DNA from: Escherichia coli
Lineage (GTDB): Bacteria > Pseudomonadota > Gammaproteobacteria > Enterobacterales > Enterobacteriaceae
Strand: one strand, 5' to 3'
NCBI RefSeq assembly: GCF_050920415.1
Contig: NZ_CP169309.1
DNA: 64,000 bases
Positions 3,365 through 63,073 of the stretch are shown one piece after another (position 1 is the stretch's first letter; each line of letters opens with the position of its first letter). The notes under the pieces were generated by a model, which was not told the origin of the DNA, searched no databases, and worked only from the letters and a program-made list of their open reading frames with translations. The translations under genes were made by a program, and so were the position numbers.

Positions 3365-3466
3365 ACTGCCTGATGCGCTGCGCTTATCAGGCCTACAAGG
3401 TTTCTGCAATATATTGAATTTGCAATATTTTGTAGGCCGGATAAGGCGTTCACGCCGCATCCGGCA
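3365..3466. repeat. BIME: two inverted REP palindromes downstream of the flagellin gene
   Basis: gcctgatgcgctgcgcttatcaggcctac … gtaggccggataaggcgttcacgccgcatccggca; classic E. coli REP sequence. A near-identical pair with the same linker occurs at 24050-24152. Confidence 0.75.
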
Positions 3467-6769: not shown

Positions 6770-7597
6770 TTAGAGAACGCTGAATAAATTCAACTCACTC
6801 ACTTTCGAGTAAGTCTTGAGGGTAGCTTCCATTGCCACTTCCAGTCCGGTAAAGGTGATCGACGCAGGGCCGTAATCGAGATCCTGCAATGAACCAATCA
6901 ACTCATCATTAGAGGTAGAGATATCGGTCTGCGCATCGCTCAGCATCGACATGGTGTTTTGTGTCTCGCCGAGCGACGCAATCGAGGCGTTGAGGTCGTC
7001 CGAGGCGGTGTCCACCACATTAACGGCGTTTTGAATATCGCTTTGTACCTGCGGATCTGCCGGGTCAACGTTAGGGTCTTGCAACTCCTGAGAGAGCGAA
7101 TTGAGCGTGTTGAGCACATCTAAATTACTTCCGAAGAAATCGCTCACCGCCACGTTGGTATCCACTTCAACGCCGTTCGACACCGTCGTCTGGCGATGGT
7201 CGCTGTTACCCTGATAGCTGTAGCTATCGGTCACGCCATCACCGTCATCGTCCAACGCCACAATCGGCGGCTGATCGTTGATGGTGCCGCCAAAGACGTA
7301 ATGCCCGTCTTCATCCTGATAGTTGAGCGCCGCCAGCAGGCTGTTGTTGACGCCATCGAGAATCGACTCCTGCTGGCTTAACCCCGCCGACGCAGAGTCA
7401 ATATTGCTTTGATACTGCTCAATCGCCGACTGCTGGCGGTTCAACTGAGTGATGCGTGTGGCGGCGATAGGATCATCCGATGGCTGCAAAATTTCCTTGC
7501 CGGTTGCCATCTGCTCGACCACGTGCGCCAGTTCGCCAGAAAGATTATTAAAACTTTGCGTCATCGAGACGTAGGTTTGTTGAGTGGTTACTCGCAT
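6770..7597 (-). CDS. lfgL: Hook-filament junction protein FlgL-like (HAP3)
   Basis: Start chosen at the internal ATG (MRVTTQQTYVSM…), which has a GGGAG Shine-Dalgarno upstream and a 14-nt gap after flgK; flagellin-like terminal helices. The ORF track start at 7621 is the alternative. Confidence 0.8.
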   Translation of the reverse strand: MRVTTQQTYVSMTQSFNNLSGELAHVVEQMATGKEILQPSDDPIAATRITQLNRQQSAIEQYQSNIDSASAGLSQQESILDGVNNSLLAALNYQDEDGHYVFGGTINDQPPIVALDDDGDGVTDSYSYQGNSDHRQTTVSNGVEVDTNVAVSDFFGSNLDVLNTLNSLSQELQDPNVDPADPQVQSDIQNAVNVVDTASDDLNASIASLGETQNTMSMLSDAQTDISTSNDELIGSLQDLDYGPASITFTGLEVAMEATLKTYSKVSELNLFSVL

Positions 7598-7611
7598 TTT
7601 CGCGCTCCCGC

Positions 7612-8988
7612 TTAGCTGCACATTTCCAGCACCGAATCGAAAATCTCGGCCCCGGCGGAAATGACTTTCAGATTGGCTTCATAAATTTGTTGATAGGTGA
7701 TCAGGTTCACCGCCTCTTCGTCCATGCTGACGCCGCTGACGCTGCTCTGCTGGTTTTGCGCCTCAGAATAGACATTGGACGCAGCGGTCACTTCGGTCTG
7801 GTTTTGCTGAGTGTAAATGCCGATATTGCTGATGATTGACGAGCACGCTTGCCCGACCGTCACGCTGCCGAGGTTGCCTATCTCCAACGGCTCAGTGGAG
7901 ATGTTGATCAGCGCCTGCAGGTTGTCGCTGTTGCCGCTTTCATCCGGCGAACTGGAGAACGCCAGTTCATCGGCGGTGATATCCGGGTTAACGGTCAGCG
8001 GGCCATCGGCATTACTGGCATCGTAAATAAACAGCGGCTCGCCGGGGTTACCGTTGAGATCGTAGCCCTGCGCCAGCTGGTTGTTGACCGCATCGGCAAA
8101 CTGCGACGCCATGCTGTTGATGGTGTCGGTCAGCGGCGTCAGCACGTCGTTTTGATAATCAAAAAGTGCGCCTAATGAACCGCCGGTGTCGGTGGTCATG
8201 GTCGAGGTCGTTCCGGCAAAGGTCAGTGTCATCGTTGGCGTGCCATCGGCGTTGGTTTCCAGCGCAATGGTCGAGCTTTGCTGCCCGCTCACCAGCGGCT
8301 GACCGTTTTGCAGGGTGACGTTGTAGTTGCCCTGGTCGTCGATATTGACCTGCACATCCATCATCCCGCTGAGTTCTTCCACCATCTGGTCGCGGGCATC
8401 GTACAGCGCAGAGGCGTTATCGCCGTTGGCTTCGGCCTGGGCGATTTGCTGGTTATAGCTGGCGATGCCGCTGGTGAGGGTGTTAATTTGCGACACCATC
8501 GCCTGCTGCTGGCTGATGATTTCCGTGCTTTGCGAGTCGATGTAATCGAGCGTGTTATCGATACGCAACGACAGCGCCCCGGCTTCGCTGATCACCTGCT
8601 CGCGCAGGGCAGAATCATCGGGGCTGGTGGTCGCTTCGTTGAGGGCCGCGAAAAAGTTATCGAACCCGCCGCTCAGGCTGCTGTTATCGTCGCTCAATAC
8701 CGCTTCCAGTTGCGTGAGATACCCTTGCTGGGTGTTGTAATAGCCGTAATCGCTGGCGGCATACCACACCTGATTCACCTGATACTGGTTGGAGACGCGA
8801 CGAATGCTGTCGACCTGCACACCGTTTCCGGCGCTGTTCGGCGAACCGCCGCTGGCACCGATGGTGCTGATCTCCGCCACCTGGCGGGTGTAGCCCGTGG
8901 TCATGGCGTTAGCGGTGTTTTGCGCCGTGACGTTCAGCTCCACCTGCGCCGTTGATGCGCCGCTGTAGCCGATGTTAATCATGTCCAT
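7612..8988 (-). CDS. lfgK: Hook-associated protein FlgK-like (HAP1)
   Basis: 458 aa; N-terminus MDMINIGYSGASTAQVELNVTAQNTANAMTTGY… and C-terminal …NLITYQQIYEANLKVI… are typical of FlgK. Confidence 0.85.
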   Translation of the reverse strand: MDMINIGYSGASTAQVELNVTAQNTANAMTTGYTRQVAEISTIGASGGSPNSAGNGVQVDSIRRVSNQYQVNQVWYAASDYGYYNTQQGYLTQLEAVLSDDNSSLSGGFDNFFAALNEATTSPDDSALREQVISEAGALSLRIDNTLDYIDSQSTEIISQQQAMVSQINTLTSGIASYNQQIAQAEANGDNASALYDARDQMVEELSGMMDVQVNIDDQGNYNVTLQNGQPLVSGQQSSTIALETNADGTPTMTLTFAGTTSTMTTDTGGSLGALFDYQNDVLTPLTDTINSMASQFADAVNNQLAQGYDLNGNPGEPLFIYDASNADGPLTVNPDITADELAFSSSPDESGNSDNLQALINISTEPLEIGNLGSVTVGQACSSIISNIGIYTQQNQTEVTAASNVYSEAQNQQSSVSGVSMDEEAVNLITYQQIYEANLKVISAGAEIFDSVLEMCS

Positions 8989-9070
8989 GTTGGATCCTTA
9001 CCGGTAAATCGTGCCGGATAAAAGCGGCGTGAAGTTGGGGATTCTTAAGTGGGAGGGGGTGCGCGCATTG

Positions 9071-9192
9071 CCCCCTCACCCTAACCCTCTCCCTGAGGGA
9101 GAGGGGACCGATCGAGCACGGTATTGAACAGGGTGCCGGTTTTCTCCCTCTCCCTGTGGGAGAGGGCCGGGGTGAGGGCATCAGCGCGCACC
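9071..9192 (+). repeat. Copy A of a ~120-bp composite palindromic intergenic repeat
   Basis: ccccctcaccctaaccctctccctgagggagagggg … ttttctccctctccctgtgggagagggccggggtgagggc; two hairpin modules. Nearly identical to copy B (11346-11470) and inverted copy C (21429-21545). Confidence 0.8.
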
Positions 9193-9197
9193 TCCCC

Positions 9198-9497
9198 TCA
9201 CCTATGCTTCGGCGACAACTGCTTCACAATCATCGCCGCAATCCCTATCCCGTGCTGCTGCGCCAGGGCGTTACACAACTCATCGTCATAAAATCCCTGC
9301 ATCATGCGCACCGAATCGCTGTTAAATGGGTTATCTTTCGAATCAAACAACTCGTTGGTTTTTCGCATCTCTTTGAGCATGTTGCGTAAAAAAATCGCCT
9401 CAAACTGTTCGGCGGCCTGCTTAATATCATTGGCCTGAACCTTCGGCCCCATTAACGCATCGCTGCCGTCAATCCCGCCGCTGGCGTTGACTTTCAT
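9198..9497 (-). CDS. lfgJ: Short FlgJ-like protein (rod-binding domain only; no muramidase domain)
   Basis: 99 aa; …IKQAAEQFEAIFLRNMLKEMRKT… matches the FlgJ N-terminal rod-binding motif. The ORF ends at 9198, so no glucosaminidase domain is encoded. Confidence 0.75.
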   Translation of the reverse strand: MKVNASGGIDGSDALMGPKVQANDIKQAAEQFEAIFLRNMLKEMRKTNELFDSKDNPFNSDSVRMMQGFYDDELCNALAQQHGIGIAAMIVKQLSPKHR

Positions 9498-10612
9498 CAG
9501 ATCACCTCCAGGTCGGCATCCAGCGCGCCCGCTTCATGCAGCGCCTGCAAAATCGACATAATGTCGTCCGGCGTTGCGCCTAAACTGTTCAGCGCATTGA
9601 CCAACGTTTTCAGGCTGCTCGATTCCGGCAAACTCACCACGCCCGGACGGGCATGATTCACCGCGATATTGCTCTGCGGCGTCACCGCCGTGCGCCCGCC
9701 AGCAAAGGCATTCGGCTGGCTGACGTTGCTGGTTTCGTTAATTGAGACGGTCAGGCTGCCGTGCGACACCGCCGCCGCGTGCAGCGCGATGCCATCGCCC
9801 ATCACCACCGTACCGGTACGCGAGTTAAACACCACGCGGGCGCGGATTTTCTCCGCCTGTACCTGCACATCATCCAGTTGCGACATAAACGCCACCCGCG
9901 CGCCGGGGCTGGTGGGCGCACGCACGGTGACGTTGGTGGAACTCTGCGCCGTGGCAATGCCGCCAAACGAGGCGTTGATCGCCGCCGCAATGTTGTTGGC
10001 GTCTTTAAACGACGGACGTTTCAGGTTAAGCGTGATGGTGTCGCCCATCTGAAAATCGCTGGGAATTTCGCGCTCCACCGTCGCGCCATTGGGGATTAAT
10101 CCGGCGGTCGGCGTATTAACCGTTACGCTCGAGCCGCTGGCCCCGGTGGCGTTCATCCCGCCCACCACCACGCTGCCCTGCGCCAGGGCATACACTTCGC
10201 CATCTGCGCCGTGCAACTGGGTCAGCAGCAAGGTGCCGCCGCGAATACTTTTGGCATCGCCAATCGACGAGACGGTGACATCAATGGTCTGCCCGCGCGA
10301 GTACATCGGCGGCAACGTGGCACTCACCGCCACCGCGGCGACGTTTTTCACCTTCGGGTCGATTTTATTTGGCAACTGCACGCCAAACTGGCGCAGCATA
10401 TTGGTGATGGTCTGGTTGGTGAATTTGACCTGGTTTTTATCGCCCGTACCGTCGAGGCCGACCACCAGGCTGTAGCCGACCAGTTGGTTTTCACGCACGC
10501 CCTGTACGTTGACCAGCGACTCCAGCGATTGCGCCAGCGCCACGCCGGGTAGCGCCAGGGTTACGGCTACCATCACCGTTTTTATCCAGTTTTGCATTGC
10601 ACTCTCCGGCAT
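9497..10612 (-). CDS. lfgI: Flagellar P-ring protein FlgI-like
   Basis: 371 aa with signal peptide (…[14 protein letters not shown]…); start ATG overlaps the flgH stop (TAATG coupling). Confidence 0.9.
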
Positions 10613-11277
10613 TAAATCGGGAACAGAGGATGGTTAAACAGCCGGGTCAGCCAGCCTGCGGCGTTGGCGTCACTTAACGCGCCACGTCCGGCATAGGAGA
10701 TACGGGCATCGGCGATCCGCTGGGAAGAAACCGAGTTGTCATTCTGGATATCGTCGGCGCGCACCAGGCCGCTTAAGCGGATGTACTCATCGCCCTGATT
10801 GAGGGTGAGCCATTTCTCGCCGCGAATTTCCAGGATGCCGTTGGGCTGCACCGCATGAACGGAAACGGTGATCTCCCCGCGCAGGCTGTTCTGCTGCTGG
10901 GAGGTGGCGCTGCCGTCAAAGTCGCGGTTGGCGTCGATGGAGCCGGAAAGGTTATTTTTGGTGTGACCAAATACCGTTGGCGCGGTAATATCGACGCTGT
11001 TGCTTTTGCCAAAGTTGGTTTTCGCCTGTTTGCTCGACTGGGTGGATTCTTCGAGGATCACTGTCAGAATATCGCCCACGCGGTAAGCCCGCCGATCGGC
11101 GGTTAGCGACCAGTTGTAGCCCGTTTCAAACAAGCCCCCGGCACGCCCGTCTGCCGGAGGCGGCGCTTCGGTTTTCGGTGGCGCAAAGTATGCGTCGTCT
11201 TTTTTGACCAGAATGGCCTGCGATTCACACCCGCTAAGCAGGGGAAGCAGCGCCACCAGCCAGAGATAATTTTTCAC
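10612..11277 (-). CDS. lfgH: Flagellar L-ring lipoprotein FlgH-like
   Basis: 221 aa; lipoprotein signal [17 protein letters not shown]; conserved FlgH core (…[13 protein letters not shown]…). Confidence 0.9.
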
Positions 11278-11345
11278 GTTCTGCCTGTTTAGTGTTGCAG
11301 GCCACGGGGGTGGCCGGTTGTTTGGTGGGTGCGGAGCTGTTTGTT

Positions 11346-11470
11346 CCCCCTCACCCTAACCCTCTCCCTCAAGGGAGAGGGGACTGACCTGTGCGCGTTG
11401 TTACATTGTGCACCGCTTTTCTCCCTCTCCCTGTGGGAGAGGGCCGGGGTGAGGGCATCAGGCCGCACCG
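11346..11470 (+). repeat. Copy B of the composite palindromic intergenic repeat
   Basis: ccccctcaccctaaccctctccctcaagggagagggg … ttttctccctctccctgtgggagagggccggggtgagggc; lies between the flgH start and flgG stop. Confidence 0.8.
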
Positions 11471-11481: not shown

Positions 11482-12267
11482 TTACAGCGTCTGACTGATG
11501 TACTGCAACATATCGTCCGCCGCCGAAACCATTTTGGCGTTCATCTCGTACGCGCGTTGCACCGTAATCATCGCCACCATTTCGTTGACGATATCCACGT
11601 TCGAGCCTTCGAGCGCATTGTCCTGCAAGGTGCCAAGCCCATCTTCGCCCGGTACGCCTTCGGTCGGCTGACCGCTGGCGGCGGTTTCCAGATAGAGGTT
11701 GTCGCCCTCGGCGGAAAGCCCCGCCGGGTTGGCGAAGTTCACCAGCGTCAGTTGCCCTAACTCGGTCACGTCGCTGTCGCCGGGTAAGATAGCCGTCACC
11801 GTACCGTCCTCACCAAACGCAACATTCGTCGCCCCCGCCGGAACGTCGATTTCCGGCTGCAATGGCAAGCCCTGCGAGTTGGTTAGCACGCCGTCGGCAT
11901 TCACCTGCAAATTGCCGTCGCGGGTATAGGCGATATCGCCGTTGGCCTTTTGCACCTGCAAAAACCCCTGCCCCATAATGGCGACATTCATCGCGTTGTC
12001 GGTGGTTTCGACGTTGCCTTCGGTAAAGGTTTTCTGAGTGCCGACAATGCGCACGCCGCTACCGAATTGCAGCCCGGTCGGCATGATGTTGTTCTGGTCG
12101 AGCATCGCGCCCGGCGCTTCCTGGGTCTGGTAGAACAGATCCTGAAACATCACCCGGTCGCGCTTGAAGCCGGTGGTGTTAACGTTGGCGATGTTGTTGG
12201 CAATCGCGCTCATTTCAGCATCCTGCGCCGAGAGGCCGGTTTTGCTGATCCATAATGCTGCGTTCAT
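11482..12267 (-). CDS. lfgG: Distal rod protein FlgG-like
   Basis: 261 aa; N-terminal …ALWISKTGLSAQDAEMSAIANNIANVNTTGFKRDR… and C-terminal …NVDIVNEMVAMITVQRAYEMNAK… rod-family motifs. Confidence 0.9.
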   Translation of the reverse strand: MNAALWISKTGLSAQDAEMSAIANNIANVNTTGFKRDRVMFQDLFYQTQEAPGAMLDQNNIMPTGLQFGSGVRIVGTQKTFTEGNVETTDNAMNVAIMGQGFLQVQKANGDIAYTRDGNLQVNADGVLTNSQGLPLQPEIDVPAGATNVAFGEDGTVTAILPGDSDVTELGQLTLVNFANPAGLSAEGDNLYLETAASGQPTEGVPGEDGLGTLQDNALEGSNVDIVNEMVAMITVQRAYEMNAKMVSAADDMLQYISQTL

Positions 12268-12293: not shown

Positions 12294-13031
12294 TCACGAG
12301 CCGCGCAATAAGCGGTTGCCCGCGTCGCTGATATCTTCGGCAGTTTTCATCATCTTGATCTGCGCTTCAAACTGGCGATTCATGGCGATGGACGACATCA
12401 TTTCGCTCACCGCCGAGACGTTGCTGCCTTCGAGAAAACCGCCGCTGACTTTGATGTTTTCATCGCGCTGGGCCGGAATGCCGTCGCTAGTCACCAGCAT
12501 CCCTTCAGGATTTTTCGCCAGGTTAGCGACAGGGATATCCACCAGCTTCAGGCGGTCGATATCCATCGTGGCGGTCACGTCGCCGTCATCGGGCGTCACC
12601 GAGAGCGTGCCGTCGCTGCCAAAAGAGGCGATGGCGTTCGGCGGCAGAATGATCGGGCCGTTATCCCCCAGCACCAGATTGCCGTCGATGGTCAGTTGCC
12701 CCTGATCGTTCTGCTGAATATTGCCGTTGCGGGTATAGACTTCGTTGCCGTTTTTATCCTGCACCGCAATGTAACCCGCCCCCTGAATCGCCACGTCCAG
12801 CGGGCGTTCGGTTTTCTCCGCCACACCCGTGCTGTCGTTCACGCCGCTGGCCCCTTCCTGCGCCATATAGCGCGTGTCGAAGCCGCCACCTTTCACCTTG
12901 TCGTTGGTCGCCATCGCCATATCGGCGCGAAAACCGTTGGTGTTGACGTTCGCCAGGTTGTTGGCGCTAATCTGCTGCTCATACAACGTCTGCGAAGCCC
13001 CGCTCAGGGCGGTATAAATCAGGCGATCCAT
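12294..13031 (-). CDS. lfgF: Proximal rod protein FlgF-like
   Basis: 245 aa; rod-family N- and C-terminal motifs (…NNLANVNTNGFRAD…, …NVSAVSEMMSSIAMNRQFEAQ…). Confidence 0.9.
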   Translation of the reverse strand: MDRLIYTALSGASQTLYEQQISANNLANVNTNGFRADMAMATNDKVKGGGFDTRYMAQEGASGVNDSTGVAEKTERPLDVAIQGAGYIAVQDKNGNEVYTRNGNIQQNDQGQLTIDGNLVLGDNGPIILPPNAIASFGSDGTLSVTPDDGDVTATMDIDRLKLVDIPVANLAKNPEGMLVTSDGIPAQRDENIKVSGGFLEGSNVSAVSEMMSSIAMNRQFEAQIKMMKTAEDISDAGNRLLRGS

Positions 13032-16704: not shown

Positions 16705-18171
16705 ATGAGTGATACTGTATCACCAATAAGACCTATGGGGGATGCTATGTCTGAATTTGAATTACTCGTGAAAGATCTTCTTTTAAAATCAGAAGAAGAC
16801 GAGAAAAAGCGACAAGAAAAAGATCGAGAATTAATTTCAAAGGTCCTTGAAATCTATGATCAAAAATATGTTGCAGAACTCTTACGAAAACTAGGAAAAA
16901 ATGAATGGAGCAGAGAAACACTTAACCGTTGGATAAATGGTAAGTGCAATCCTAAGCAATTAACTTCTGCGGAGGAAACTTTACTCCGCAAGATGCTTCC
17001 AGAACCTCCTGAACATCATCCTAACTACACATTTCGTTTTATTGATTTATTCGCAGGGATTGGTGGTATTCGTAAAGGTTTCGAAAACATTGGTGGACAG
17101 TGTGTTTTTACCAGCGAATGGAATAAAGAAGCGGTAAGAACCTACAAAGCTAATTGGTTTAATGATGAACTAAATCATAAATTTAATCTTGATATACGAG
17201 AAGTCACTTTAAGTGATAGAGATGATGTTTCCGAAGTAGAAGCCTATAATCATATAGACAAAAATATTCCAGATCATGATGTCCTTCTGGCCGGTTTTCC
17301 ATGTCAGCCCTTTAGTCTGGCTGGGGTAAGCAAGAAAAACTCTCTGGGGCGTGCACATGGTTTTGAATGTGAGGCACAAGGAACACTATTTTTTGATGTC
17401 GCTCGGATTATTAAATCAAAAAAACCAGCTATTTTTGTGCTTGAGAATGTGAAAAACCTTAAAAGTCATGATAAAGGTAAGACTTTTAAAGTCATCATGG
17501 AAACACTCGATGAATTAGGATATGAAGTCGCCGATGCTGGTGTTACTGGCTCAGATGATCCCAAAATTATAGATGGAAAACATTTTTTACCCCAACATCG
17601 TGAGCGTATAGTGTTGGTAGGATTTCGTAGAGATCTGAATATTCACAAGGATTTCACGTTACGAAACATTAACCGCTTTTACCCTCAAAACAGGCCAACA
17701 TTTGGTGAATTATTAGATCATGATGTTGACGATAAATATATTTTGACTCCAAGGTTATGGGAATATCTTTACAATTATGCAAAAAAACATGCAGCAAAAG
17801 GCAATGGGTTTGGTTTTGGTTTAGTGGATCCTAAAAATCCAGATAGTATCGCAAGGACTCTGTCTGCTCGTTATCATAAAGATGGCTCTGAAATATTGAT
17901 TGATCGTGGCTGGGATAAGGCTGTCGGTGAAATTGACTTTAGTAATCCAGCGAATCAAGAGCATCGTCCAAGAAGACTGACACCTCACGAATGTGCCAGG
18001 CTAATGGGTTTTGAAAAACCAGGGGGAAGACCTTTTAGAATACCTGTATCGGATACACAAGCCTATAGACAATTTGGGAACTCAGTTGTTGTTCCAGTAT
18101 TTGAAGCTGTAGCAAGATTACTAGAACCATATATACAAAAGGCAGTCAATATGCATATTATTAACGATTAA
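16705..18171 (+). CDS. DNA (cytosine-5)-methyltransferase, Dcm/M.EcoRII-like (predicted CCWGG specificity)
   Basis: C5-MTase motifs read directly: [11 protein letters not shown] (motif I), [11 protein letters not shown] (motif IV), ENVKNL (motif VI), [10 protein letters not shown] (motif X). Overall layout closely parallels E. coli Dcm as I recall it. AT-rich gene. Confidence 0.9.
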
Positions 18172-18257: not shown

Positions 18258-19463
18258 TTATACAAAATCTTCATAAAGCGTTATTAACTGTGTAATAAAA
18301 CCATCTAATGTTAATATTTCCTCCCTGATTTCCTCCGGGTATTTTTTATGAAGAGGGGAAGGTACAACCAAGGTGACACCTTCAGCTCTCATTTCGTTAA
18401 ATTGAGCAACAGAGACACCCTCTTGCAAGGTAAACAAATATATCTTGTTGATTTTATTTGCTTCATTAAGCGCCTGTCGCCACCGATCCTTACATGTTGT
18501 TTTTACAGCAAGCATACGGAGTTTTTCTCTTGGAAAGTGATCATCATGGTAAGCTGCCGCTGATGGGAAAAGAAAATCGGGTTTCTTTTTTCCTTCAGTA
18601 ATACATTGAGTAGCAAAATGATGCAGTCCATGCTCAATAAAAATTTGCTCAAGATGTAGCTCCAGTGATTTCCCGGCTCGAGATTTTCTTCTATTACTAA
18701 CAGAGTTAGCCATAGCTATAAAATCATCTACAGAACCAAATCCTTGACGGATGATGTCCAGTACGTGAATTTCTTCAACCATTAGAAAGAGATCATATTC
18801 AATACGGCGGCGTTCTAAAAGTTGGTCATCTGGACTGGTTACGCCTGTTGGGTAATAACCTGCCGCATATTGGATAATATCTAAGCCAGAAGGAAAACTA
18901 TGTTTCCAGCTTTCCGGAATAACATATTCCTTTTGAGAGATTTTTGGCCTTGATGCGAGTACACCAAGTATTTCACTGGCAGGCCCAAACATTAAAGTTC
19001 CTGGAATGATCTCCCCAACAGCTGATTCCAGTACATCCTCTTCTTCTGGGCTTACACAAACCCATACATCAACACTTTTGCTGTCTCTCCCAGGCTCATG
19101 TTCAAACGCAAGCACAGACAAAGCACCTGTATTTTCCGGATCTTGTAGGGGACTGCCAGCCCCCCACCGAGTGATACGTTTTTCATTTCTTGTTTGCCCG
19201 AAATACTTATTATTGTAGTAAATAGCGCGAACCTCACTGTCTACACATTCATGAGAGGAATAAGTTGCGCGCAATAAAACCGAAGGATTTTTTTCTGACG
19301 TATGATCTATAGATGGGAAAAGTTCACCGACGATACCGGAAGGGATATATACCCCCACTTGATGCCCTCCTGTTGCACCAGTGTCGTTTGCTGAAAGACG
19401 TTTGATATAGAGATAATTGTTACCACCGACCTTATCAAGCAGCCAATCTTGTAATCCTGACAT
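18258..19463 (-). CDS. Type II restriction endonuclease, EcoRII-like
   Basis: 401 aa, convergent with the Dcm-like MTase. N-terminal …YIKRLSANDTGATGGHQVGVYIP… and overall length match my recollection of R.EcoRII (~400 aa, two-domain). Not verified by alignment. Confidence 0.75.
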   Translation of the reverse strand: MSGLQDWLLDKVGGNNYLYIKRLSANDTGATGGHQVGVYIPSGIVGELFPSIDHTSEKNPSVLLRATYSSHECVDSEVRAIYYNNKYFGQTRNEKRITRWGAGSPLQDPENTGALSVLAFEHEPGRDSKSVDVWVCVSPEEEDVLESAVGEIIPGTLMFGPASEILGVLASRPKISQKEYVIPESWKHSFPSGLDIIQYAAGYYPTGVTSPDDQLLERRRIEYDLFLMVEEIHVLDIIRQGFGSVDDFIAMANSVSNRRKSRAGKSLELHLEQIFIEHGLHHFATQCITEGKKKPDFLFPSAAAYHDDHFPREKLRMLAVKTTCKDRWRQALNEANKINKIYLFTLQEGVSVAQFNEMRAEGVTLVVPSPLHKKYPEEIREEILTLDGFITQLITLYEDFV

Positions 19464-20440: not shown

Positions 20441-21409
20441 TTGCACATCCTGCACAGCATTAAAGACTGGAAGCCACCTATGAGTTTTATTGAATGTTAC
20501 GAACCGGAATATGCGCGCAATTTTATGGCGCAATATCCCGATTCGCCTTTATACGTCCGCAAGGTGTGGAAGAATGAGATTCGCCAGAGCCTGGCATTGA
20601 CCGATATTGCCAGTTGCAAAGCAGTGCTCAACAATGCCAGGGCCTTTGAATTACAGCTTACCTATCGCCCTGTGGAAGAAAATGCCGCAGCGCTATCTGC
20701 GCGCGATGCGATAGTAAACCAGATAATTTTGAGCACCCTCACGCTCCCGGATTTAACCCCAGAGCTTTCACTGTATGCCGTCGGGATTTTGCTCTCCCGC
20801 GCCAGTAAAATGCCGGGCAGAGACGGCGACACTCTCGCCCGGCTGACAGCACTGCCGCAGGCGCTGGCCGATCACGCACAAAAAGGCACGTTACAGGCAC
20901 AGTTCGCACAGCTACCGCCTGTGCCACAGCTGGCGCGCCAACTGGTGACGCTGCTCGGGAGTTTTGCGTTTGACTGGTCGATTCTGCCGAAAAGCCCGCG
21001 CAAAGCCTCACTGCCGTTGCAGGTTACCTTGCTGACGCTGCACGACGCCAACAGCGAAGCCCTGTTGCAGCAGCAGCTTCAGACACAGTGGCAAACTACC
21101 TGGCAACAGCATTTTGCCACCGCGCCGTGGATGATGCGTAACTGGCTAATTTACCGGGTTTATCACGATGTGATTGGCCAGGCAGACGGGGCGGATTATT
21201 TCCCGCTGGTGTGCGATTTTTACCTCATCCGCACGTTAATCAGTTTATGGACGCTGGATGATTCACCGCTGCGGCAGGAGGATATTTTCGCCCTCTTCGC
21301 GGTGTTTGAACGCTGGCGAACCAGTGAAAATGCCGTGCTGATTCGCCAGCAAATTCAGTCATTATGTGCCGCCGACCCGCTGCTTTCAGCGTTTTCGTTG
21401 CTGACGTGA
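20441..21409 (+). CDS. Hypothetical protein (GC-typical), function unknown
   Basis: 322-aa ORF downstream of flgN (alternative start 20480, MSFIECYEP…); no motif I can assign. Confidence 0.5.
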   Translation: MHILHSIKDWKPPMSFIECYEPEYARNFMAQYPDSPLYVRKVWKNEIRQSLALTDIASCKAVLNNARAFELQLTYRPVEENAAALSARDAIVNQIILSTLTLPDLTPELSLYAVGILLSRASKMPGRDGDTLARLTALPQALADHAQKGTLQAQFAQLPPVPQLARQLVTLLGSFAFDWSILPKSPRKASLPLQVTLLTLHDANSEALLQQQLQTQWQTTWQQHFATAPWMMRNWLIYRVYHDVIGQADGADYFPLVCDFYLIRTLISLWTLDDSPLRQEDIFALFAVFERWRTSENAVLIRQQIQSLCAADPLLSAFSLLT

Positions 21410-21428
21410 GTCGCTCTGTGCGCGCTTT

Positions 21429-21545
21429 GCCCTCACCCCGGCCCTCTCCCACAGGGAGAGGGAGAAACCCTGCGCCCAATTCAGCACCGCGCTCGATCGG
21501 TCCCCTCGCCCCTTCGGGGAGAGGGTTAGGGTGAGGGACATCAGC
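21429..21545 (-). repeat. Copy C (inverted) of the composite palindromic intergenic repeat
   Basis: gccctcaccccggccctctcccacagggagagggagaaa … ccttcggggagagggttagggtgaggg; reverse complement aligns with copies A and B. Confidence 0.8.
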
Positions 21546-21596
21546 GCGCGCATTCAGCACCTCCATCACATTCACCCACTAACTCACCCAAACACC

Positions 21597-24041
21597 ATGC
21601 CAACACCAAGCATCATCAAAACACTCGCCACCCACCGCGAAAAACCGTTCGTCAGCGTCGTCACGCCAACATGGAACCGCGGCGCATTCCTCCCGTACCT
21701 GCTCTATATGTACCGCTATCAGGACTACCCGGCAGACCGCCGCGAACTGGTCATCCTTGACGACTCGCCGCAAAGCCATCAACACATCATCGACCGCCTG
21801 ACCAATGGCACGCCGGAAGCCTTTAACATCCGCTACATCCATCACCCGGAAAAACTGCCGCTGGGAAAAAAACGCAATATGCTCAACGAACTGGCGAGCG
21901 GCGAATATATCCTCTGCATGGATGACGACGACTACTACCCGGCAGATAAAATCTCTTACACCATCGCCATGATGCAAAAACACCGGGCGCTGATCTCCGG
22001 TTCCGACCAGATCCCCATCTGGTACAGCCATATCAACCGCATCTTTCAAAGCCGCAGCTTTGGCCCGCGTAACATCCTCAACGGCACCTTTTGTTATCAC
22101 CGTAACTACCTGAAAAAGCACCGTTACAATGACGATTGCAATTTAGGCGAAGAGAAAAGTTTCACCGACAATTTCAGCGTAAACCCGCTGCAACTGCCCG
22201 GCGAGCGCACGATTTTGTGTATTTCGCATAGCCACAACACCTTTGATAAAGACTTTATTCTCGGGGCCAGCACGCCAGTAAACGCGGCGCTTACGGATAT
22301 CGTCACCGATCCGCTGCTCCGCAATGCTTATCTGAGTCTGCATAACGCCACGCATCACCAGGGGATCAACCATCAGGCGATCTATCAGATCGTTCTGCTG
22401 AATCTGGATAAACGCCCGGATCGTTTACGGCAGATCCGTGAAGAGCTGGCATTGCTGCATATTCCGCCTGAAAAAATTACCCGCCTTGCCGCCTGTGAAG
22501 ATGAAAACGGTCAACGGGGCCGCCGCCTGTCGCACTTGCAGGCGCTACGCCTGGCGCAACAGCACGGCTGGCAAAACTATCTGCTGCTGGAAGATGACGC
22601 GGTTATTCTCAAGCAGGAGAAACATATTCAGGTGCTGAACACGCTGCTGGCGAGCCTGGCGAAAATTCCCTGGCAGGTGATGATCCTCGGAGGCGAAATT
22701 TCGCAAGGAACAATGCTAAAAAGCCTGCCGGGGCTGGTGCACGCGCAGGACTGCCGCAAAGTGTGCGCTTATCTGGTGAACAGCCGGTACTACCCACAAC
22801 TGGCGCAGCAGATGAGTAACGATGAGCACTCGCTGGAAGACGGCTGGCAGCCACTGCTGCGTGCCGACAAATGGCTGGCCTGTTACCCGAGCCTTAGTTA
22901 TCAGCGACCGGGCTTTAGCGATATCGAGAAAAAAGCGACTGATAACATTAACCACTACTTCAATAAGTTACCCGTAGCCACCAAGCCATCTACATTACCT
23001 ATCGCCGACACCATCGGCTTTTTAATGGAAACCTCATTCCACTACGCGCTCTATCGCCCAATCATCACCGCTCTACAGGCGCAGGGGCAGAGCTGCACGC
23101 TGGTGATCAACGACCGCGTGTTTAAACCGTTTCTGGATGAAATGCTGGAGACGCTAAAAACCATCGACGATCCGCAGCTCAAAGGTATGCGCTTGTCTGA
23201 GATGCAGGCACACGGTCAGCGGGTGAAATGCCTGGTCAGCCCCTACCACACGCCCGCGCTCAATGGCCTGGCAGCGGTGAACATCCGCGCTATGTACGGC
23301 TTAGCCAAAGAAACGTGGAACCACGCCGACTGGAACCGTTTTTATCAGCGCATTTTGTGTTATAGCCACTACAGTCAGCAGGCGCTGGCGCATTTCGGCA
23401 GCGCAAAAGTGGTCGGCAATCCACGCTTCGACGCCTGGCATAACGGCACGTTCGACCGTGCGTTGCCGGAAAATATCCAACCAGATTACCGTAAACCTAC
23501 GGTGCTCTACGCCCCAACATTTGGCGCATTAAGCTCCCTGCCCCACTGGGCAGAAAAATTGGGCCGCTTAAGCGGTGATGTGAACCTGATTTGCAAACTG
23601 CACCACGGTACCTGCTCGCGCCCGGAAGAAGCCGCATCGCTGACCCTGGCACGCAGGCATTTAAAGCAGAGCACCGACTCCGCCCGTCACACGCTGGCGA
23701 TGCTGGCAAAAGCCGATTACGTGCTCACCGATAACAGCGGCTTTATTTTCGATGCTATCCACGTTGATAAGCGGGTGATCCTGCTCGACTTTCCGGGCAT
23801 GACGGAACTGCTCGACGGTGAGAAAAGTTATTCCACACCGGAGAGCGCCGACCAGCGAATCCGCGAAATATTACCGGTGGCTCATGATATGGCTGAGCTG
23901 CGTTACTTATTGTCAGAGGCGTTTGACTGGGGGGCGGTACAGGCGCGGCTTACGGAGATTCGCCATCACTATTGTGACGCGTTTATGGATGGCAAGGCGG
24001 GAGAACGGGCGGCGATGGTGGTTGTGGAGGCATTGGGGTAA
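21597..24041 (+). CDS. Large multidomain glycosyltransferase (GT2-like N-terminus, GT25-like centre, TagB/TagF-like C-terminus); candidate flagellin-modification enzyme
   Basis: N-terminus …VSVVTPTWNRGAFLPYLL…ILDDSP… (GT-A fold); central …LLNLDKRPDRL…LLEDDAVI… (GT25-like); C-terminus …YAPTFG…KLHH…VLTDNSGFIFDA… resembling CDP-glycerol glycerophosphotransferases. Start taken at ATG 21597; the ORF extends back to 21531 across repeat C. Confidence 0.65.
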   Translation: MPTPSIIKTLATHREKPFVSVVTPTWNRGAFLPYLLYMYRYQDYPADRRELVILDDSPQSHQHIIDRLTNGTPEAFNIRYIHHPEKLPLGKKRNMLNELASGEYILCMDDDDYYPADKISYTIAMMQKHRALISGSDQIPIWYSHINRIFQSRSFGPRNILNGTFCYHRNYLKKHRYNDDCNLGEEKSFTDNFSVNPLQLPGERTILCISHSHNTFDKDFILGASTPVNAALTDIVTDPLLRNAYLSLHNATHHQGINHQAIYQIVLLNLDKRPDRLRQIREELALLHIPPEKITRLAACEDENGQRGRRLSHLQALRLAQQHGWQNYLLLEDDAVILKQEKHIQVLNTLLASLAKIPWQVMILGGEISQGTMLKSLPGLVHAQDCRKVCAYLVNSRYYPQLAQQMSNDEHSLEDGWQPLLRADKWLACYPSLSYQRPGFSDIEKKATDNINHYFNKLPVATKPSTLPIADTIGFLMETSFHYALYRPIITALQAQGQSCTLVINDRVFKPFLDEMLETLKTIDDPQLKGMRLSEMQAHGQRVKCLVSPYHTPALNGLAAVNIRAMYGLAKETWNHADWNRFYQRILCYSHYSQQALAHFGSAKVVGNPRFDAWHNGTFDRALPENIQPDYRKPTVLYAPTFGALSSLPHWAEKLGRLSGDVNLICKLHHGTCSRPEEAASLTLARRHLKQSTDSARHTLAMLAKADYVLTDNSGFIFDAIHVDKRVILLDFPGMTELLDGEKSYSTPESADQRIREILPVAHDMAELRYLLSEAFDWGAVQARLTEIRHHYCDAFMDGKAGERAAMVVVEALG

Positions 24042-24049
24042 ACCGCAGA

Positions 24050-24152
<103 letters not shown>

Positions 24153-24367
24153 AACAGCGCACTTATCTACCCTTCGATTTTAAATACATCTCTTTATGGC
24201 TGGTGAATCGGTAAAGTCGTAGATTGTGGGGGAGCGATCTTTATGAATTCTGAAAAAACCCTGAATCTTGCTAAACATATTGCTTATCATAAATATAGGT
24301 TACACACTATAAAAATTACTGCGTAATTTAACATCTTGCCTAAAAATGATAGAGCGTAAACGATAAT

Positions 24368-25189
24368 ATGACTTCTGATAAAAAAGTAACTTCCGGTACG
24401 ACAAGCCAGAAACAAAACAACATTGTCACTCAAAAAATATCACGCCAGAAGGAATTGTTTCTATTATTTTGGGTTGATGAGTCCGATGATAGCCGACGTT
24501 CTATTTTTGAAGAAGCATGTCTGACGCGTTATTTCAATATCCTTTATTCCCCCGAGTATAAAAAAGAAACACAGATAGTTTATCATTTATCAATTAACAC
24601 ATTTAATCAAATCAAAGAAATATTAGAAATCTTTATAAACAAGAATGGAGGTAAAACTAAAGCAAAGGTTAAAGAAGTCAGTTTATTCTCACATGGGGGG
24701 CCAATTCATGGTCCTACAACCTCAAACTCTATAAATACACCTTCCGTGCCTAAATACCCACAACAAATGGACATATCCGGAGGATGGGATTCAATTGATT
24801 TTAACTGGTCAAACAATGCTATGTTTGTTATGTATGGTTGTCGCACTAGTTATGCAAGTGATGATTCAGGACAAGGTTTTGCCAGTAAATTATCCCTATT
24901 AGATAATTTTAAGGACGTGAATGTCTGGGGTCAAACAGAAAGTACTTATCCATCTTATTTCCCAGATATCAGGACAACGTCGATTATGAGGTCAATAAAT
25001 ATAGGTTGGTCTTTTTCACCAACATATATGGTTGCCAATTCTGAAGGTCAAGGATGGGATGCATTATTCCCGGATAATCGAAATCCATTAAAAGCTCTCC
25101 CTATGCAGTGTTATAATAATGGGACATTGATTTTAACCTGCGATCAAAGCAATTTTAATGATCACCGGAAGAATAAATCAAATGATTAG
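24368..25189 (+). CDS. Hypothetical protein with a caspase-like (clan CD peptidase-type) His…Cys dyad; AT-rich
   Basis: 273 aa; hydrophobic strand + SHG (VSLFSHGGP, His109) and, 49 residues later, hydrophobic strand + GC (AMFVMYGCRT, Cys158), the arrangement of caspase/CHAT-type catalytic dyads. Inferred by eye only. No signal peptide. Confidence 0.45.
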   Translation: MTSDKKVTSGTTSQKQNNIVTQKISRQKELFLLFWVDESDDSRRSIFEEACLTRYFNILYSPEYKKETQIVYHLSINTFNQIKEILEIFINKNGGKTKAKVKEVSLFSHGGPIHGPTTSNSINTPSVPKYPQQMDISGGWDSIDFNWSNNAMFVMYGCRTSYASDDSGQGFASKLSLLDNFKDVNVWGQTESTYPSYFPDIRTTSIMRSINIGWSFSPTYMVANSEGQGWDALFPDNRNPLKALPMQCYNNGTLILTCDQSNFNDHRKNKSND

Positions 25190-25721
25190 CATTGTATTGA
25201 GAAGCTTTATTTTATTATTCATAATAATAGTGTATCCGGATTATAATAAAAACCCACCTGCCTTTGAAGTATATGGGGAAAATGACATACTTAAGGATAT
25301 GGTTATTAATATGAAAACTTATAGATACCATAGTAAGGAAAACTCTTCCCCCACAGCTATAGTGCAAACCATCCTTTTTAAAGGAAATATACAGCAAGTT
25401 TTTGAAAGCAATGACATGGGTGGTGCGAGCTTCTTTTTTTCTTATAATAATAAGGTTGAAACGCTGGTAACAGACGCTTTCTTTTTAAATAAAAAATTAG
25501 ACAAACTGCATGATGCAAATATTTTTGAGGTTATAAAGCATAAGGAAAACATCGTTATTAGATATTACAAGTGCAAAATTGAATATATGCAAAGAGAAAA
25601 ATTTATCGAAATAGAGATATCAACAAACAAAAATAGTTATTTTAACAAGAATGGAATAAAACAAAAAGATACAAATAAATATAACACATATTTCTTCAAT
25701 TACTTTGAGTCTCAAAAATAA
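25158..25721 (+). CDS. Hypothetical small membrane-anchored protein, partner of the upstream gene; AT-rich
   Basis: 187 aa; N-terminal hydrophobic segment (ISIVLRSFILLFIIIVY), Lys/Asn-rich remainder; overlaps the upstream gene (alternative start 25182 gives an 8-nt overlap). Confidence 0.45.
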   Translation: MITGRINQMISIVLRSFILLFIIIVYPDYNKNPPAFEVYGENDILKDMVINMKTYRYHSKENSSPTAIVQTILFKGNIQQVFESNDMGGASFFFSYNNKVETLVTDAFFLNKKLDKLHDANIFEVIKHKENIVIRYYKCKIEYMQREKFIEIEISTNKNSYFNKNGIKQKDTNKYNTYFFNYFESQK

Positions 25722-25724
25722 ATT

Positions 25725-26129
25725 TTATTTTGTCATGCGCGCCCTCCTAATCACCTCAATAATCCCCGTCGTCGACACCGACGGCGTGCGGGGGAAATAG
25801 ACCACCTCACAAATATACGCGAAGCTATCAAACTTCCCTGCCCAGTCATCGCCCATCACCAAAACATCCGCACTGTACCCCCGCAGATATTCCGCTTTCT
25901 GCGCCAGCGATTCCTCGAGAAATACGCCATCCACGCACGCCAGCCCGGCGATAATCGCCATGCGGTCATCCTGAGGGTAAACCGGTGCCCTGCCCTTTTT
26001 GGCAATATTTAAGGCGTCGGACGACACGCCAACCAGCAGCCGTTCGCCCAGCGTGCGGGCGCGTTGTAAAAGGCGCAGATGACCGACATGAAACACATCG
26101 AAGGTGCCGAAGGTGATGACCGTTTTCAT
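25725..26129 (-). CDS. Cytidylyltransferase, TagD/glycerol-3-phosphate cytidylyltransferase-like
   Basis: Start at internal Met (MKTVITFGTFDVFHVGHLRLL…); HxGH nucleotidyltransferase motif; 134 aa; begins 3 nt after the fliJ stop. Confidence 0.75.
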   Translation of the reverse strand: MKTVITFGTFDVFHVGHLRLLQRARTLGERLLVGVSSDALNIAKKGRAPVYPQDDRMAIIAGLACVDGVFLEESLAQKAEYLRGYSADVLVMGDDWAGKFDSFAYICEVVYFPRTPSVSTTGIIEVIRRARMTK

Positions 26130-26131
26130 GG

Positions 26132-26566
26132 CTACTCCGCTAATTTGTGCCGTAGCCAGCACTGAACGGCGATGTCATCCACCGCTTTTTGCGCTTTCGC
26201 CGTGGCACTTTCTTGCTGCTCGCGGCGTTTGTCATCCAGCGTCAGGGCCACCACTTTCTCTTCGCATGCCGCCGCCGTCAGGTTTTTCTGCATTCGCGTA
26301 GCCTTGATGTTAGCCAGCGTTTTTTCCTGCTCCTGCCAGGCGATCACTTTGCGCAAGGTGCCTTTGTAGCCGCTGACGTTTTTCAGCGATTCCACCGACG
26401 CCGCCGCGCCCGCAGATGTTTTCTCCACCAGGTAGCCTAACGCTTTGATATTGTTGTCATAGCCCGCGCAAATCTGTTTTTGCTTTGCCAGCTCGACGGT
26501 TTTGTCTTTGACCGATTTATCCCGCAGGCGCTGCAATTGCGCGAGGGTGTCGATGATTTGTCGCAT
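26132..26566 (-). CDS. lfiJ: Flagellar export protein FliJ-like
   Basis: 144-aa coiled-coil protein immediately downstream of the FliI-like ATPase gene. Confidence 0.7.
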   Translation of the reverse strand: MRQIIDTLAQLQRLRDKSVKDKTVELAKQKQICAGYDNNIKALGYLVEKTSAGAAASVESLKNVSGYKGTLRKVIAWQEQEKTLANIKATRMQKNLTAAACEEKVVALTLDDKRREQQESATAKAQKAVDDIAVQCWLRHKLAE

Positions 26567-32711: not shown

Positions 32712-32800
32712 TAGAGTCGTATGGCGGATAAGGTTTTTACGCCGCATCCGGCAATTGTGCACCGGTGCCTGATGCGACGCTGCGCGTCTTATCAGGCCTA
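32712..32800. repeat. BIME in the divergent lafK / fliM control region
   Basis: atggcggataaggtttttacgccgcatccggcaa … ggtgcctgatgcgacgctgcgcgtcttatcaggcctac. Confidence 0.7.
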
Positions 32801-39998: not shown

Positions 39999-40757
39999 TT
40001 ACAAAATCGTCTCTTCCGTCAAAATCCGCCGCGCGCCTAAAAAATGATCCTGCCAGAAAGGTTCAGCTAACCGACTTACCCGAATGGTTTCCCCGGTGCG
40101 CGGCGACTCGATAAACTGACCGTCTCCCAGATACACGCCCATATGGTCGGCAATCTCGCGGCTGTGAATATGGAAAAACAGCAAATCTCCCCGGCGCAGG
40201 TCGTTATTTGCCACAATGGTTGCCCGACGGTAGTGATACATCTCATTGGCCGTGCGCGGGAGTTTCGCCTCGAGGATCTTGTTGTAGGCATAAAAAACCA
40301 ACCCGCTACAGTCGAAGCCTTGATCGGGTCGCGTGCCACCCCAGACGTATGGCTTGCCAAGCTGCTGCTCCAGACGGTGAATCGCCACTTCGGTGATATT
40401 ATGCAGGTGGTTACTGCTGAGGAAATGATTGTTTTCCGCCAGCGCCTGCCAGCGTCTGTCACTCGCCTTGAGCGGCGCAGGAAACCATTCTGGATGCTGT
40501 TTTATCTGTTCGCGGTTGTGTTGCCGCAGTGCCCTTCTGCTTTCGGCATTGCCTTCCACAATATAGCTGGCCTGCTTTTTCAGATGAATTTGGTACTGTT
40601 TTAATAAACGCGCACGGTTTTGCATCCGCTGGCGGGCGGCGTAGCTGAAAGAGATATGTGATGTGGTGGCGCTGGCGAGTAAAGGGAGCAAAACGCATAA
40701 CGAAAACACGCCTGGATGCAGAAATCTGCCGAGCAAGAACGAAGACATGAAGGACAT
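39999..40757 (-). CDS. yafL: NlpC/P60-family lipoprotein peptidase YafL
   Basis: 252 aa; signal sequence and NlpC/P60 catalytic Cys motif (…GFDCSGLVFYAY…) with downstream His. Alternative start 40748. Confidence 0.8.
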   Translation of the reverse strand: MSFMSSFLLGRFLHPGVFSLCVLLPLLASATTSHISFSYAARQRMQNRARLLKQYQIHLKKQASYIVEGNAESRRALRQHNREQIKQHPEWFPAPLKASDRRWQALAENNHFLSSNHLHNITEVAIHRLEQQLGKPYVWGGTRPDQGFDCSGLVFYAYNKILEAKLPRTANEMYHYRRATIVANNDLRRGDLLFFHIHSREIADHMGVYLGDGQFIESPRTGETIRVSRLAEPFWQDHFLGARRILTEETIL

Positions 40758-41048: not shown

Positions 41049-41789
41049 ATGCGTAAAATCGCATTAATTCTTGCGATGTTGTTGATCCCGTGCGTTTCGT
41101 TTGCCGGTTTGCTGGGCAGCAGTAGCTCGACCACGCCAGTGAGCAAAGAGTATAAGCAGCAGTTGATGGGATCCCCTGTCTACATCCAGATCTTCAAGGA
41201 AGAACGTACGCTCGATCTCTACGTCAAAATGGGCGAGCAATATCAGCTGCTCGACAGTTATAAAATCTGTAAATATTCCGGCGGCTTAGGGCCAAAACAG
41301 CGTCAGGGCGATTTCAAAAGCCCGGAAGGGTTTTATAGCGTCCAGCGTAATCAGTTAAAACCAGACAGCCGTTACTACAAAGCGATTAATATTGGTTTCC
41401 CCAATGCCTATGACCGTGCGCATGGTTATGAAGGGAAATACCTGATGATCCACGGCGATTGTGTTTCCATCGGCTGCTACGCAATGACCAATCAAGGTAT
41501 TGATGAGATCTTCCAGTTCGTTACTGGTGCGCTGGTGTTTGGTCAGCCGAGCGTGCAAGTGAGTATTTACCCGTTCCGCATGACCGACGCCAATATGAAG
41601 CGCCATAAATATTCCAACTTTAAGGACTTCTGGGAGCAACTGAAGCCGGGTTACGACTACTTTGAACAGACCCGTAAGCCACCGACCGTTTCTGTGGTCA
41701 ATGGCCGTTACGTGGTCAGCAAGCCGTTAAGCCACGAAGTTGTGCAGCCACAACTGGCATCAAACTACACGCTCCCCGAGGCAAAATAA
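41049..41789 (+). CDS. yafK: L,D-transpeptidase-fold periplasmic protein YafK
   Basis: 246 aa; signal peptide and YkuD-like domain (…[18 protein letters not shown]…). Confidence 0.85.
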
Positions 41790-42589: not shown

Positions 42590-42729
42590 GGTCGGATGCA
42601 GCGTGAACGCATTATTCGGCCTACGGTTCGGGTACAGATTTGTAGGCATGATAAGACGCGTCAGCGTCGCATCAGGCATCAGCGCACAAGTGCCGGATGC
42701 GGCGTAAACGCCTTATCCAGCCTACGCCA
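42590..42729. repeat. BIME with three REP palindromes
   Basis: gtcggatgcagcgtgaacgcattattcggcctac … gtaggcatgataagacgcgtcagcgtcgcatcaggca … gccggatgcggcgtaaacgccttatccagcctac. Confidence 0.75.
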
Positions 42730-54042: not shown

Positions 54043-54584
54043 GTTGCAGGTTCCTTCATCTCGCGGGGTTCTTTGATAGGATAATTTGGTGTACCATATT
54101 TCTGGCAGACGGTTGTCACTTTTATCTGATTGCACGATAGAAAATGAACGGTCAGGCCACAAAGCTCAGCATCGTATTCCGGGATATCAACAATTACTTT
54201 ATATTTTTGATAATTTGCAGCATGTTTAGCATACGCATCTTCTTCATAGCCAAAACCTTCTTTTTTCATTGCAATAGGTTCAAGGGGGTTCGGGTCTACT
54301 TCCCACTCAATCCGGGCCTTTAATCCCACACGCCACTTATCTGGCAGCATAACGCAACAATATCCTCCACCGTCCCCGAATGGAGAAATATTTGGCCCAC
54401 CGTAACCATTGATGTGTAAATAATTTATAGCCTTATCCGTATGATTTATCCCATTAATATCCACAGCAGTGTAATCTCTGCTATTTTTTGCCATTGAACA
54501 GCCTGATACTGCAAATAAAATCATTAGAGAATAACATTTGAAAATCGCTCTCATACTGATACTTTTCCTTATTTCGCTGGACAT
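54027..54584 (-). CDS. Lipoprotein, putative Tle1 immunity protein (Tli-like), tandem copy 3
   Basis: 185 aa; lipobox (…LFAVSGCSMA…); paralogous to the two upstream copies, with a divergent central segment. Confidence 0.7.
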   Translation of the reverse strand: MSSEIRKSISMRAIFKCYSLMILFAVSGCSMAKNSRDYTAVDINGINHTDKAINYLHINGYGGPNISPFGDGGGYCCVMLPDKWRVGLKARIEWEVDPNPLEPIAMKKEGFGYEEDAYAKHAANYQKYKVIVDIPEYDAELCGLTVHFLSCNQIKVTTVCQKYGTPNYPIKEPREMKEPATCPAK

Positions 54585-55662: not shown

Positions 55663-55975
55663 GTTGCAGGTTCTTTTACTTTGAGAGATTTTAATTGATG
55701 GGTGTTATTTCTACGACAACAAAGTTTTGACAAAGAAGCAAATAAAATGCATATCTTTTGATTGTCACACATTGGAATATCGACAGAGCATTGATGATAT
55801 TACGCAAAATATATTGCAGCCAAGTGAACTGACATTACGATCGAACACAAATGCAACATGATGGATACTACCATTACATGTCGAGCTTGATTTTCCGCTT
55901 ATTTTACGATTATCTCTTGATATTAACAGCTACGGACTTTTAAACAGATAAATCTCCCCGTACATCACTACAATA

Positions 55976-56740: not shown

Positions 56741-56752
56741 TGTCTTTCTCCC

Positions 56753-57447: not shown

Positions 57448-57547
57448 GTCAGCGCCAATGATATAAGACAGTAATTCACCATTTGGATTGTCCGCTCCAC
57501 CCAACATGTTGTTTCCTTAAGGTTCCTACACCACAAAGGGAACACTC

Positions 57548-58718: not shown

Positions 58719-58719
<1 letters not shown>
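57548..58719 (+). pseudogene. istA: IS21-family transposase istA, frameshifted near the 3' end
   Basis: 348-aa ORF ends at 58594; the expected C-terminus (…WQTVPEHHAPLWQQVSQVEHRPLSAYEELL*) continues in another frame and ends at the TGA overlapping the istB start. Confidence 0.75.
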
Positions 58720-59512
<793 letters not shown>

Positions 59513-59569
59513 TGACCAATAGCGGACATTAAAAATGGCGAAAAACGGCCAATAATCTTGGCGTTGACA

Positions 59570-63051: not shown

Positions 63052-63073
63052 TTTTCACAGAAGGATATTCAGT

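Follow-up and report, generated by a model that had tools for sequence, protein, structure and literature searches.

Descriptions of single-domain FlgJ proteins go back to Nambu et al. (2006; as cited in PMC8517470), and two of them are accompanied by a separate transglycosylase, which is SltF in Rhodobacter sphaeroides (PMC7277832) and BB0259 in Borrelia burgdorferi (PMC8517470). LfgJ, the homologue encoded in the Flag-2 locus of Escherichia coli, resembles the single-domain FlgJs of R. sphaeroides Fla1, Caulobacter, B. burgdorferi and Liberibacter in consisting of the rod-binding/scaffold part only and in being encoded in a rod operon. The resemblance to the R. sphaeroides FlgJ/SltF pair ends there, however, as the SltF gene lies inside the flagellar cluster whereas neither the Flag-2 locus nor the 64-kb stretch of DNA analysed here (hereafter the window) contains an SLT-domain gene. 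With the flag-1 FlgJ of Salmonella and E. coli, LfgJ shares a gene position after flgI, an ATGA overlap with that gene and a homologous N-terminal domain, but it has no part of the C-terminal glucosaminidase domain. An LfgJ without a hydrolase domain is, then, an ordinary and already known kind of protein, and RefSeq already names it accordingly (WP_000867177.1, 'rod-binding protein'), an annotation that it carries in over a thousand E. coli genomes. What is mildly new here is comparative: three LfgJ architectures occur within one lateral-flagellar lineage.

The window contains the complete Flag-2 (lateral-type) locus of the E. coli chromosome, between dinB/lafU and lfhA/hicAB/yafL, and PGAP flags no pseudogenes among its flagellar genes. 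The open reading frame (ORF) list and PGAP both give the minus-strand order lfgF-G-H-I-J-K-L, with lfgF at 12294–13031, lfgG at 11482–12267, lfgH at 10612–11277, lfgI (P-ring protein) at 9497–10612, lfgJ at 9198–9497, lfgK (hook-associated protein 1) at 7612–8988 and lfgL at 6770–7621. The lfgI gene adjoins lfgJ on its upstream side, the stop codon of the one and the ATG of the other sharing a single nucleotide (ATGA, at 9497), while lfgK is the first gene downstream, 209 bp beyond the lfgJ stop codon. An earlier reading made from the sequence only had this geometry reversed, placing the end of the ORF directly before flgI; it is the start of lfgJ that meets lfgI. The flgI and flgJ genes of flag-1 in the same genome share an identical 1-nt ATGA overlap, and a start/stop overlap of this kind is a layout typical of translational coupling. 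Placement between the flgI and flgK homologues is that of a rod/ring operon gene, and the order is kept in 80 related loci.

In a segment search, positions 8600–10000 (lfgI-lfgJ-lfgK) matched the E. coli MFDS1022581 chromosome (NZ_CP169399.1) at 100% identity, in which the Flag-2 locus is, by its annotation, apparently intact and the lfgJ product again carries the name 'rod-binding protein'. The allele is otherwise unusual: only four E. coli records match this segment at ≥ 99%, the common E. coli allele being ∼92% identical, and LfgI of the window is 99% identical to the LfgI of Pseudocitrobacter vendiensis and Escherichia whittamii. These identities suggest that the Flag-2 lineage of the source strain is divergent or was exchanged horizontally.

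The 99-aa product was described in the sequence-only reading as a FlgJ homologue with the rod-binding domain alone, and the domain search of this product agrees. Its sole Pfam match is PF10135 (Rod-binding), with 53.8 bits against a cut-off of 25.1 (E 2.9e-14); the match covers residues 42–93 and the full model (positions 1–51), and the protein ends six residues past the domain. In every computable respect LfgJ behaves as a single-domain FlgJ/Rod-binding protein (PF10135). In contrast, the equivalog model for dual-domain FlgJ (TIGR02541) gives 68.5 bits, below its cut-off of 193, and aligns only through its N-terminal positions 20–91 of 294. The GH73 glucosaminidase domain (PF01832) is found neither in LfgJ nor in any of the six frames of the window. 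As a positive control, the 313-aa flag-1 FlgJ of the same genome showed both Rod-binding and Glucosaminidase domains; in the rod-binding region, LfgJ is 35% identical to it over 77 residues.

A third model, NCBIfam NF009349 (PRK12708.1-1), is the equivalog for a 97-aa short 'peptidoglycan hydrolase'. LfgJ aligns to it full-length (positions 19–97 of 97) with 85.7 bits (E 2.4e-24), short of the cut-off of 141 bits, and is a relative rather than a member of that equivalog. Since LfgJ has no hydrolase domain, the product name of this model is misleading for it; there is some value in the correction, as some NCBIfam models label short, hydrolase-free homologues 'peptidoglycan hydrolase'. In the AlphaFold2 model (pLDDT 70) residues 1–17 are disordered and helices span residues 22–51, 61–80 and 86–94, a prediction compatible with a small exported scaffold protein. 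A PDB sequence search returned no solved structure related to the LfgJ rod-binding domain. Judged by its sequence, the 99-aa ORF is LfgJ, a genuine single-domain FlgJ of the E. coli Flag-2 system.

Given that lfgJ is one-third the length of flag-1 FlgJ, and that the NCBIfam names of short homologues still read 'peptidoglycan hydrolase', one could suppose that a dual-domain flgJ has here become a truncated pseudogene or been misassembled. A frameshift hiding a downstream hydrolase domain, a possibility raised in the sequence-only reading, is excluded by two results. Translation found all three frames past the lfgJ stop codon closed, and a scan of the entire 64 kb in six frames, using HMMs built from the GH73 domains of dual-domain FlgJs and the SLT domains of Pseudomonas LfgJs, gave no matches. 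A rod-binding HMM, scanned in the same way, had lfgJ as its sole match. Nor can the gap between lfgJ and lfgK house a hydrolase domain, because 209 bp is too short for ∼150 aa. Loci of Pseudocitrobacter, E. whittamii, Citrobacter and Escherichia sp. share the 99-aa reading frame, close homologues (57% identity or more) have lengths of 95–106 aa and PF10135 as their only domain, and the lfgI-lfgJ-lfgK segment is found in 1,249 of the 5,426 complete E. coli genomes. Finally, dN/dS for lfgJ is 0.02–0.13 (Nei–Gojobori, against orthologues of Pseudocitrobacter, E. whittamii, Citrobacter and others, unsaturated dS only), comparable to that of lfgI, which shows that the gene is under purifying selection. 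With no hydrolase remnant in any frame, either downstream or in the window-wide scan, with a reading-frame length constant across several genera and the 1,249 E. coli genomes, and with dN/dS this low, a truncated or misassembled gene is extremely improbable.

The spacer between lfgJ and lfgK deserves a separate description. Most of it is filled by a composite GC-rich palindromic repeat (9046–9204, no strand assigned) with inverted repeats I1 and I2, which abuts the lfgJ stop codon and folds as RNA into a ∼160-nt composite hairpin of −116.5 kcal/mol (z = −8.0). The palindrome unit is dispersed and unannotated, being found in 4,024 of 5,426 E. coli genomes, while in E. whittamii and several Citrobacter the spacer is 85–95 bp and has no palindrome; in one Citrobacter a different repeat, which looks REP-type by eye, occupies the same site. 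We considered the palindrome as a relic of a coding domain and rejected this, as it is a dispersed repeat that is missing from the E. whittamii and Citrobacter spacers; by the comparison of these spacers, it is an insertion. GC-rich palindromic units (CCCTCACCC..CCCTCTCCCTGWGGGAGAGGG) recur in Flag-2 intergenic spacers, at 9046–9204, at 11289–11470 (lfgG–lfgH) and at about 21442–21462. No Rfam family was found in the lfgJ–lfgK spacer at the gathering threshold. On the minus strand, ∼60 nt upstream of lfgK, lies the motif TTAAGAA-N13-GCCGCTTTT (9020–9048), whose columns are invariant in seven aligned spacers. We read it as a candidate sigma-28 (LafS)-type promoter for lfgKL, by its likeness to the TAAA-N15-GCCGATAA consensus only; a sigma-70 site was sought in this spacer and none was found.

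The distribution of LfgJ architectures among related loci bears on whether the E. coli protein has lost anything. A search with an LfgI alignment, covering one genome for each GTDB species, yielded 80 loci whose FlgI is 57–99% identical to that of the window, and we scored the gene after flgI in each for domains. The Enterobacterales loci (48 of 48) all encode a Rod-binding-only protein of 97–135 aa; they come from Escherichia, Citrobacter, Pseudocitrobacter, Phytobacter, Enterobacter, Buttiauxella, Lelliottia, Kluyvera, Cedecea, Pantoea, Mangrovibacter, Yersinia, Fukatsuia, Budvicia, Pragia and others. Rod-binding alone is also found in two Photobacterium loci (167 aa) and one Aeromonas locus (132 aa), while all 29 loci from Pseudomonas, Stutzerimonas and related or unclassified gammaproteobacteria encode Rod-binding plus SLT (PF01464) in a protein of 331–398 aa. 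Beyond these loci, a search of 1.84 billion proteins with an LfgJ profile showed, among the best 150 cluster representatives, Rod-binding in 147, Glucosaminidase in 53 and SLT in 5; the single-domain share among these 150 is ∼60%, making it a common architecture. The description of this FlgJ as 'reduced' is therefore unsupported, the single-domain form being the one found in all 48 Enterobacterales lateral loci and in those of Aeromonas and Photobacterium.

One contig in this survey, labelled Chryseobacterium sp. 18061 (L020, CACSKA010000002.1), carries an Enterobacteriaceae-type Flag-2 locus whose LfgI is 79% identical and sister to that of Enterobacteriaceae RIT691. It probably reflects assembly contamination or mislabelling.

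The Pseudomonas and Stutzerimonas loci are lateral-type, running lfgA/BCDEFGHIJKL and then a LafW homologue. The LfgJ of Pseudomonas nitroreducens and Stutzerimonas stutzeri belongs to an orthologous locus type (FlgI 57–62% identical) and has a homologous rod-binding domain, but continues into an Slt70-like domain for a total of 331–398 aa, whereas E. coli LfgJ stops right past the rod-binding domain. The SLT part of the fused LfgJ can be aligned to the catalytic domains of both P. aeruginosa Slt (E 1.7e-22) and E. coli Slt70 (E 1.5e-16), and an E-S pair occurs in it where, we presume, the catalytic motif is to be expected. The loci with this architecture are L053, L056–L073, L075, L077–L080 and L082–L086 of our set (for example L059, 8113–9153), and a protein from a Cellvibrio MAG (P0173) is likewise a fusion of Rod-binding and Slt70-like SLT domains. 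A literature text search found no description of a FlgJ–SLT fusion, the primary papers on Flag-2, on V. parahaemolyticus laf and on SltF phylogeny lying outside its reach; two comparative Flag-2 papers and the Shewanella polar/lateral paper do not mention FlgJ/LfgJ.

The third architecture belongs to Plesiomonas shigelloides, whose lateral system has been linked experimentally to swarming (PMC6993521; gene table in PMC4481668). Its lateral FlgJ (FlgJ_L; 328 aa, L005, 10001–10987) is encoded in a canonical lateral cluster, organized as in E. coli, but unlike E. coli LfgJ it combines Rod-binding with a GH73 domain that is nearest to the one in its own polar FlgJ. The two parts of the protein have different relatives. 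The N-terminal domain matches Photobacterium-type single-domain proteins at 56% and 54% and the polar FlgJ of the same species at 42%, while the GH73 domain and that polar FlgJ are reciprocal best matches (58%, 190 bits vs. 152 for the next). This chimeric pattern is as expected from capture of the domain out of the polar paralogue, and suggests that the lytic domain of this lateral FlgJ passed between paralogous flagellar systems.

How these architectures are related can be read from a neighbour-joining FlgI tree, rooted with one outgroup (E. coli flag-1). The lateral lineage falls into three groups, namely Enterobacterales, Pseudomonadaceae, and Aeromonas with Plesiomonas and Photobacterium together; on this tree the Enterobacterales are all single-domain and the Pseudomonadaceae are all SLT fusions. 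Parsimony prefers a single-domain ancestor by a narrow margin, with three changes vs. four, for a sample made up of Enterobacterales, Pseudomonadaceae and related gammaproteobacteria, Aeromonas, Photobacterium and Plesiomonas. Two gains on a single-domain ancestor are the reading that we favour, because the two lytic domains are unrelated and one of them is nested among single-domain relatives; an ancestor already bearing GH73, with several losses, is the less favoured reconstruction. Thus the single domain is probably the ancestral state of the lateral lineage, and not the product of a recent reduction.

If LfgJ works as the FlgJs of Salmonella, Rhodobacter and Borrelia do, its disordered N-terminus would direct it into the Flag-2 type III apparatus for export, and the core of three helices would cap the growing rod and act as scaffold for LfgB/C/F/G. 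The hole in the peptidoglycan would then be cut by an enzyme outside LfgJ and outside the locus, a step of which we are less certain. The sequence-only reading had stated that a separate lytic enzyme was needed and that none was obvious in the locus, and both parts stand: LfgJ has no lytic domain, and no glycan-cleaving enzyme was found in the Flag-2 locus or the 64-kb window, whether in the PGAP annotation, in Pfam and NCBIfam searches of unannotated ORFs or in the HMM scans. The SLT HMM from Pseudomonas LfgJ had no match at E ≤ 10 either among the ORFs of the window or by six-frame scanning. The unannotated ORFs of the Flag-2 locus, LafW (325 aa) and those of 103, 91, 322, 273 and 187 aa, were also considered as carriers of a lytic domain, and Pfam and NCBIfam revealed none. 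By analogy with the Pseudomonas/Stutzerimonas fusion, the likeliest cutter would be an Slt70-like housekeeping enzyme (a family-1 lytic transglycosylase) that acts at the rod tip or is recruited to it. We prefer an Slt-type partner because known single-domain FlgJs use a separate transglycosylase and because lateral relatives have fused an Slt70-like domain.

Taken jointly, that LfgJ is a genuine single-domain rod cap, that the wall is cut by a separate, unlinked enzyme and that the single-domain state is probably ancestral seems to us likely. The fuller scenario we advance tentatively, giving it somewhat less than an even chance: an ancestral bare rod cap with at least two lytic captures (an Slt70-like SLT and a polar-FlgJ GH73), and an unlinked enzyme, probably a housekeeping Slt-type one recruited by LfgJ, in Enterobacterales, Aeromonas and Photobacterium. 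If this is true, Flag-2 would be a natural system for finding out by what means a rod cap brings in a general-purpose autolysin. The three architectures in any case provide a testable Slt70-type lead on the enzyme that opens the wall for the Flag-2/lateral rods of these three groups.

Other sources of the opening have to be weighed against an unlinked Slt-type enzyme. The same genome encodes the dual-domain flag-1 FlgJ, in the same flgI-flgJ-flgK layout, which might supply its lytic activity to Flag-2 in trans. Yet the rod-binding domains of the two proteins share only 35% identity, and Budvicia aquatica (106 aa), Pragia fontium (103 aa) and Tatumella ptyseos (124 aa) have a rod-binding-only LfgJ even though these taxa have no flag-1 and are described as motile (PMC6993521). 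Since motile taxa without flag-1 have the single-domain form, supply in trans is unlikely as a general answer, albeit possible in the source strain, and we regard it overall as quite improbable. A different candidate is suggested by gene position, as YafL (an NlpC/P60 endopeptidase, 39999–40757) and DpaA/YafK (an Lpp–peptidoglycan amidase, 41049–41789) are encoded just outside the locus, < 2 kb from its lfhA end. Neither cleaves glycan strands, however, unlike the known flagellar partners, and we take yafL and yafK to be core genes kept in E. coli K-12, which lost Flag-2. Because they are believed to be core genes, their place beside Flag-2 is probably coincidental, and that either opens the wall for Flag-2 is very improbable indeed.

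It could also be that no lytic enzyme is needed, the rod passing through gaps that the sacculus has naturally or that arise during growth, or that Flag-2 is a non-functional relic in E. coli whose rods are never built. Hirano and colleagues are said to have found in 2001 that Salmonella with the N-terminal half of FlgJ alone keeps weak motility, which would speak for passage without an enzyme. On the side of a relic, the Flag-2 locus of E. coli 042 has been described as inactivated by a frameshift (PMC6993521), and a function of Flag-2 in E. coli is a prediction. Against both stand the strong purifying selection on lfgJ and lfgI, the absence of any PGAP-flagged Flag-2 pseudogene in the source strain, and the fact that relatives within the same lineage have twice fused a lytic domain to LfgJ, which implies an advantage of lysis. 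We consider this pair of explanations unlikely, and retain the unlinked Slt-type enzyme as the preferred source of the opening.

Several further features of the window lie within or beside the Flag-2 locus. A DNA cytosine methyltransferase gene (16705–18171, plus strand) and a type II restriction endonuclease gene (18258–19463, minus strand) are inserted between lfgA and lfgM and split Flag-2 cluster 2. Variable region 1 (20441–26162) contains a 322-aa, weakly FliB-like ORF (flagellin lysine methylase), an 836-aa GT2 glycosyltransferase, a cytidylyltransferase and unknown ORFs of 273 and 187 aa, and is a probable flagellin-modification island. At the gathering level, Rfam places naRNA4 at 32722–32798 (plus strand) and 42645–42722 (minus strand), one of the two copies lying in the lafK–lfiM divergent region, and the ES036 sRNA at 3389–3431 (minus strand), inside a 91-aa hypothetical ORF upstream of lafB. 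The gene for the lysozyme inhibitor Ivy lies past YafL and DpaA/YafK, outside the locus on its lfhA side. Further along, a group II intron (49911–51727; Rfam matches to D1–D4 and domain V, with an ltrA maturase) adjoins a T6SS effector island (51943–64000) that encodes a Tle1-like phospholipase, three DUF3304 proteins, two VgrG proteins, a PAAR protein, a Tae4 amidase and an M23 peptidase, together with IS21 and ISAs1 fragments.
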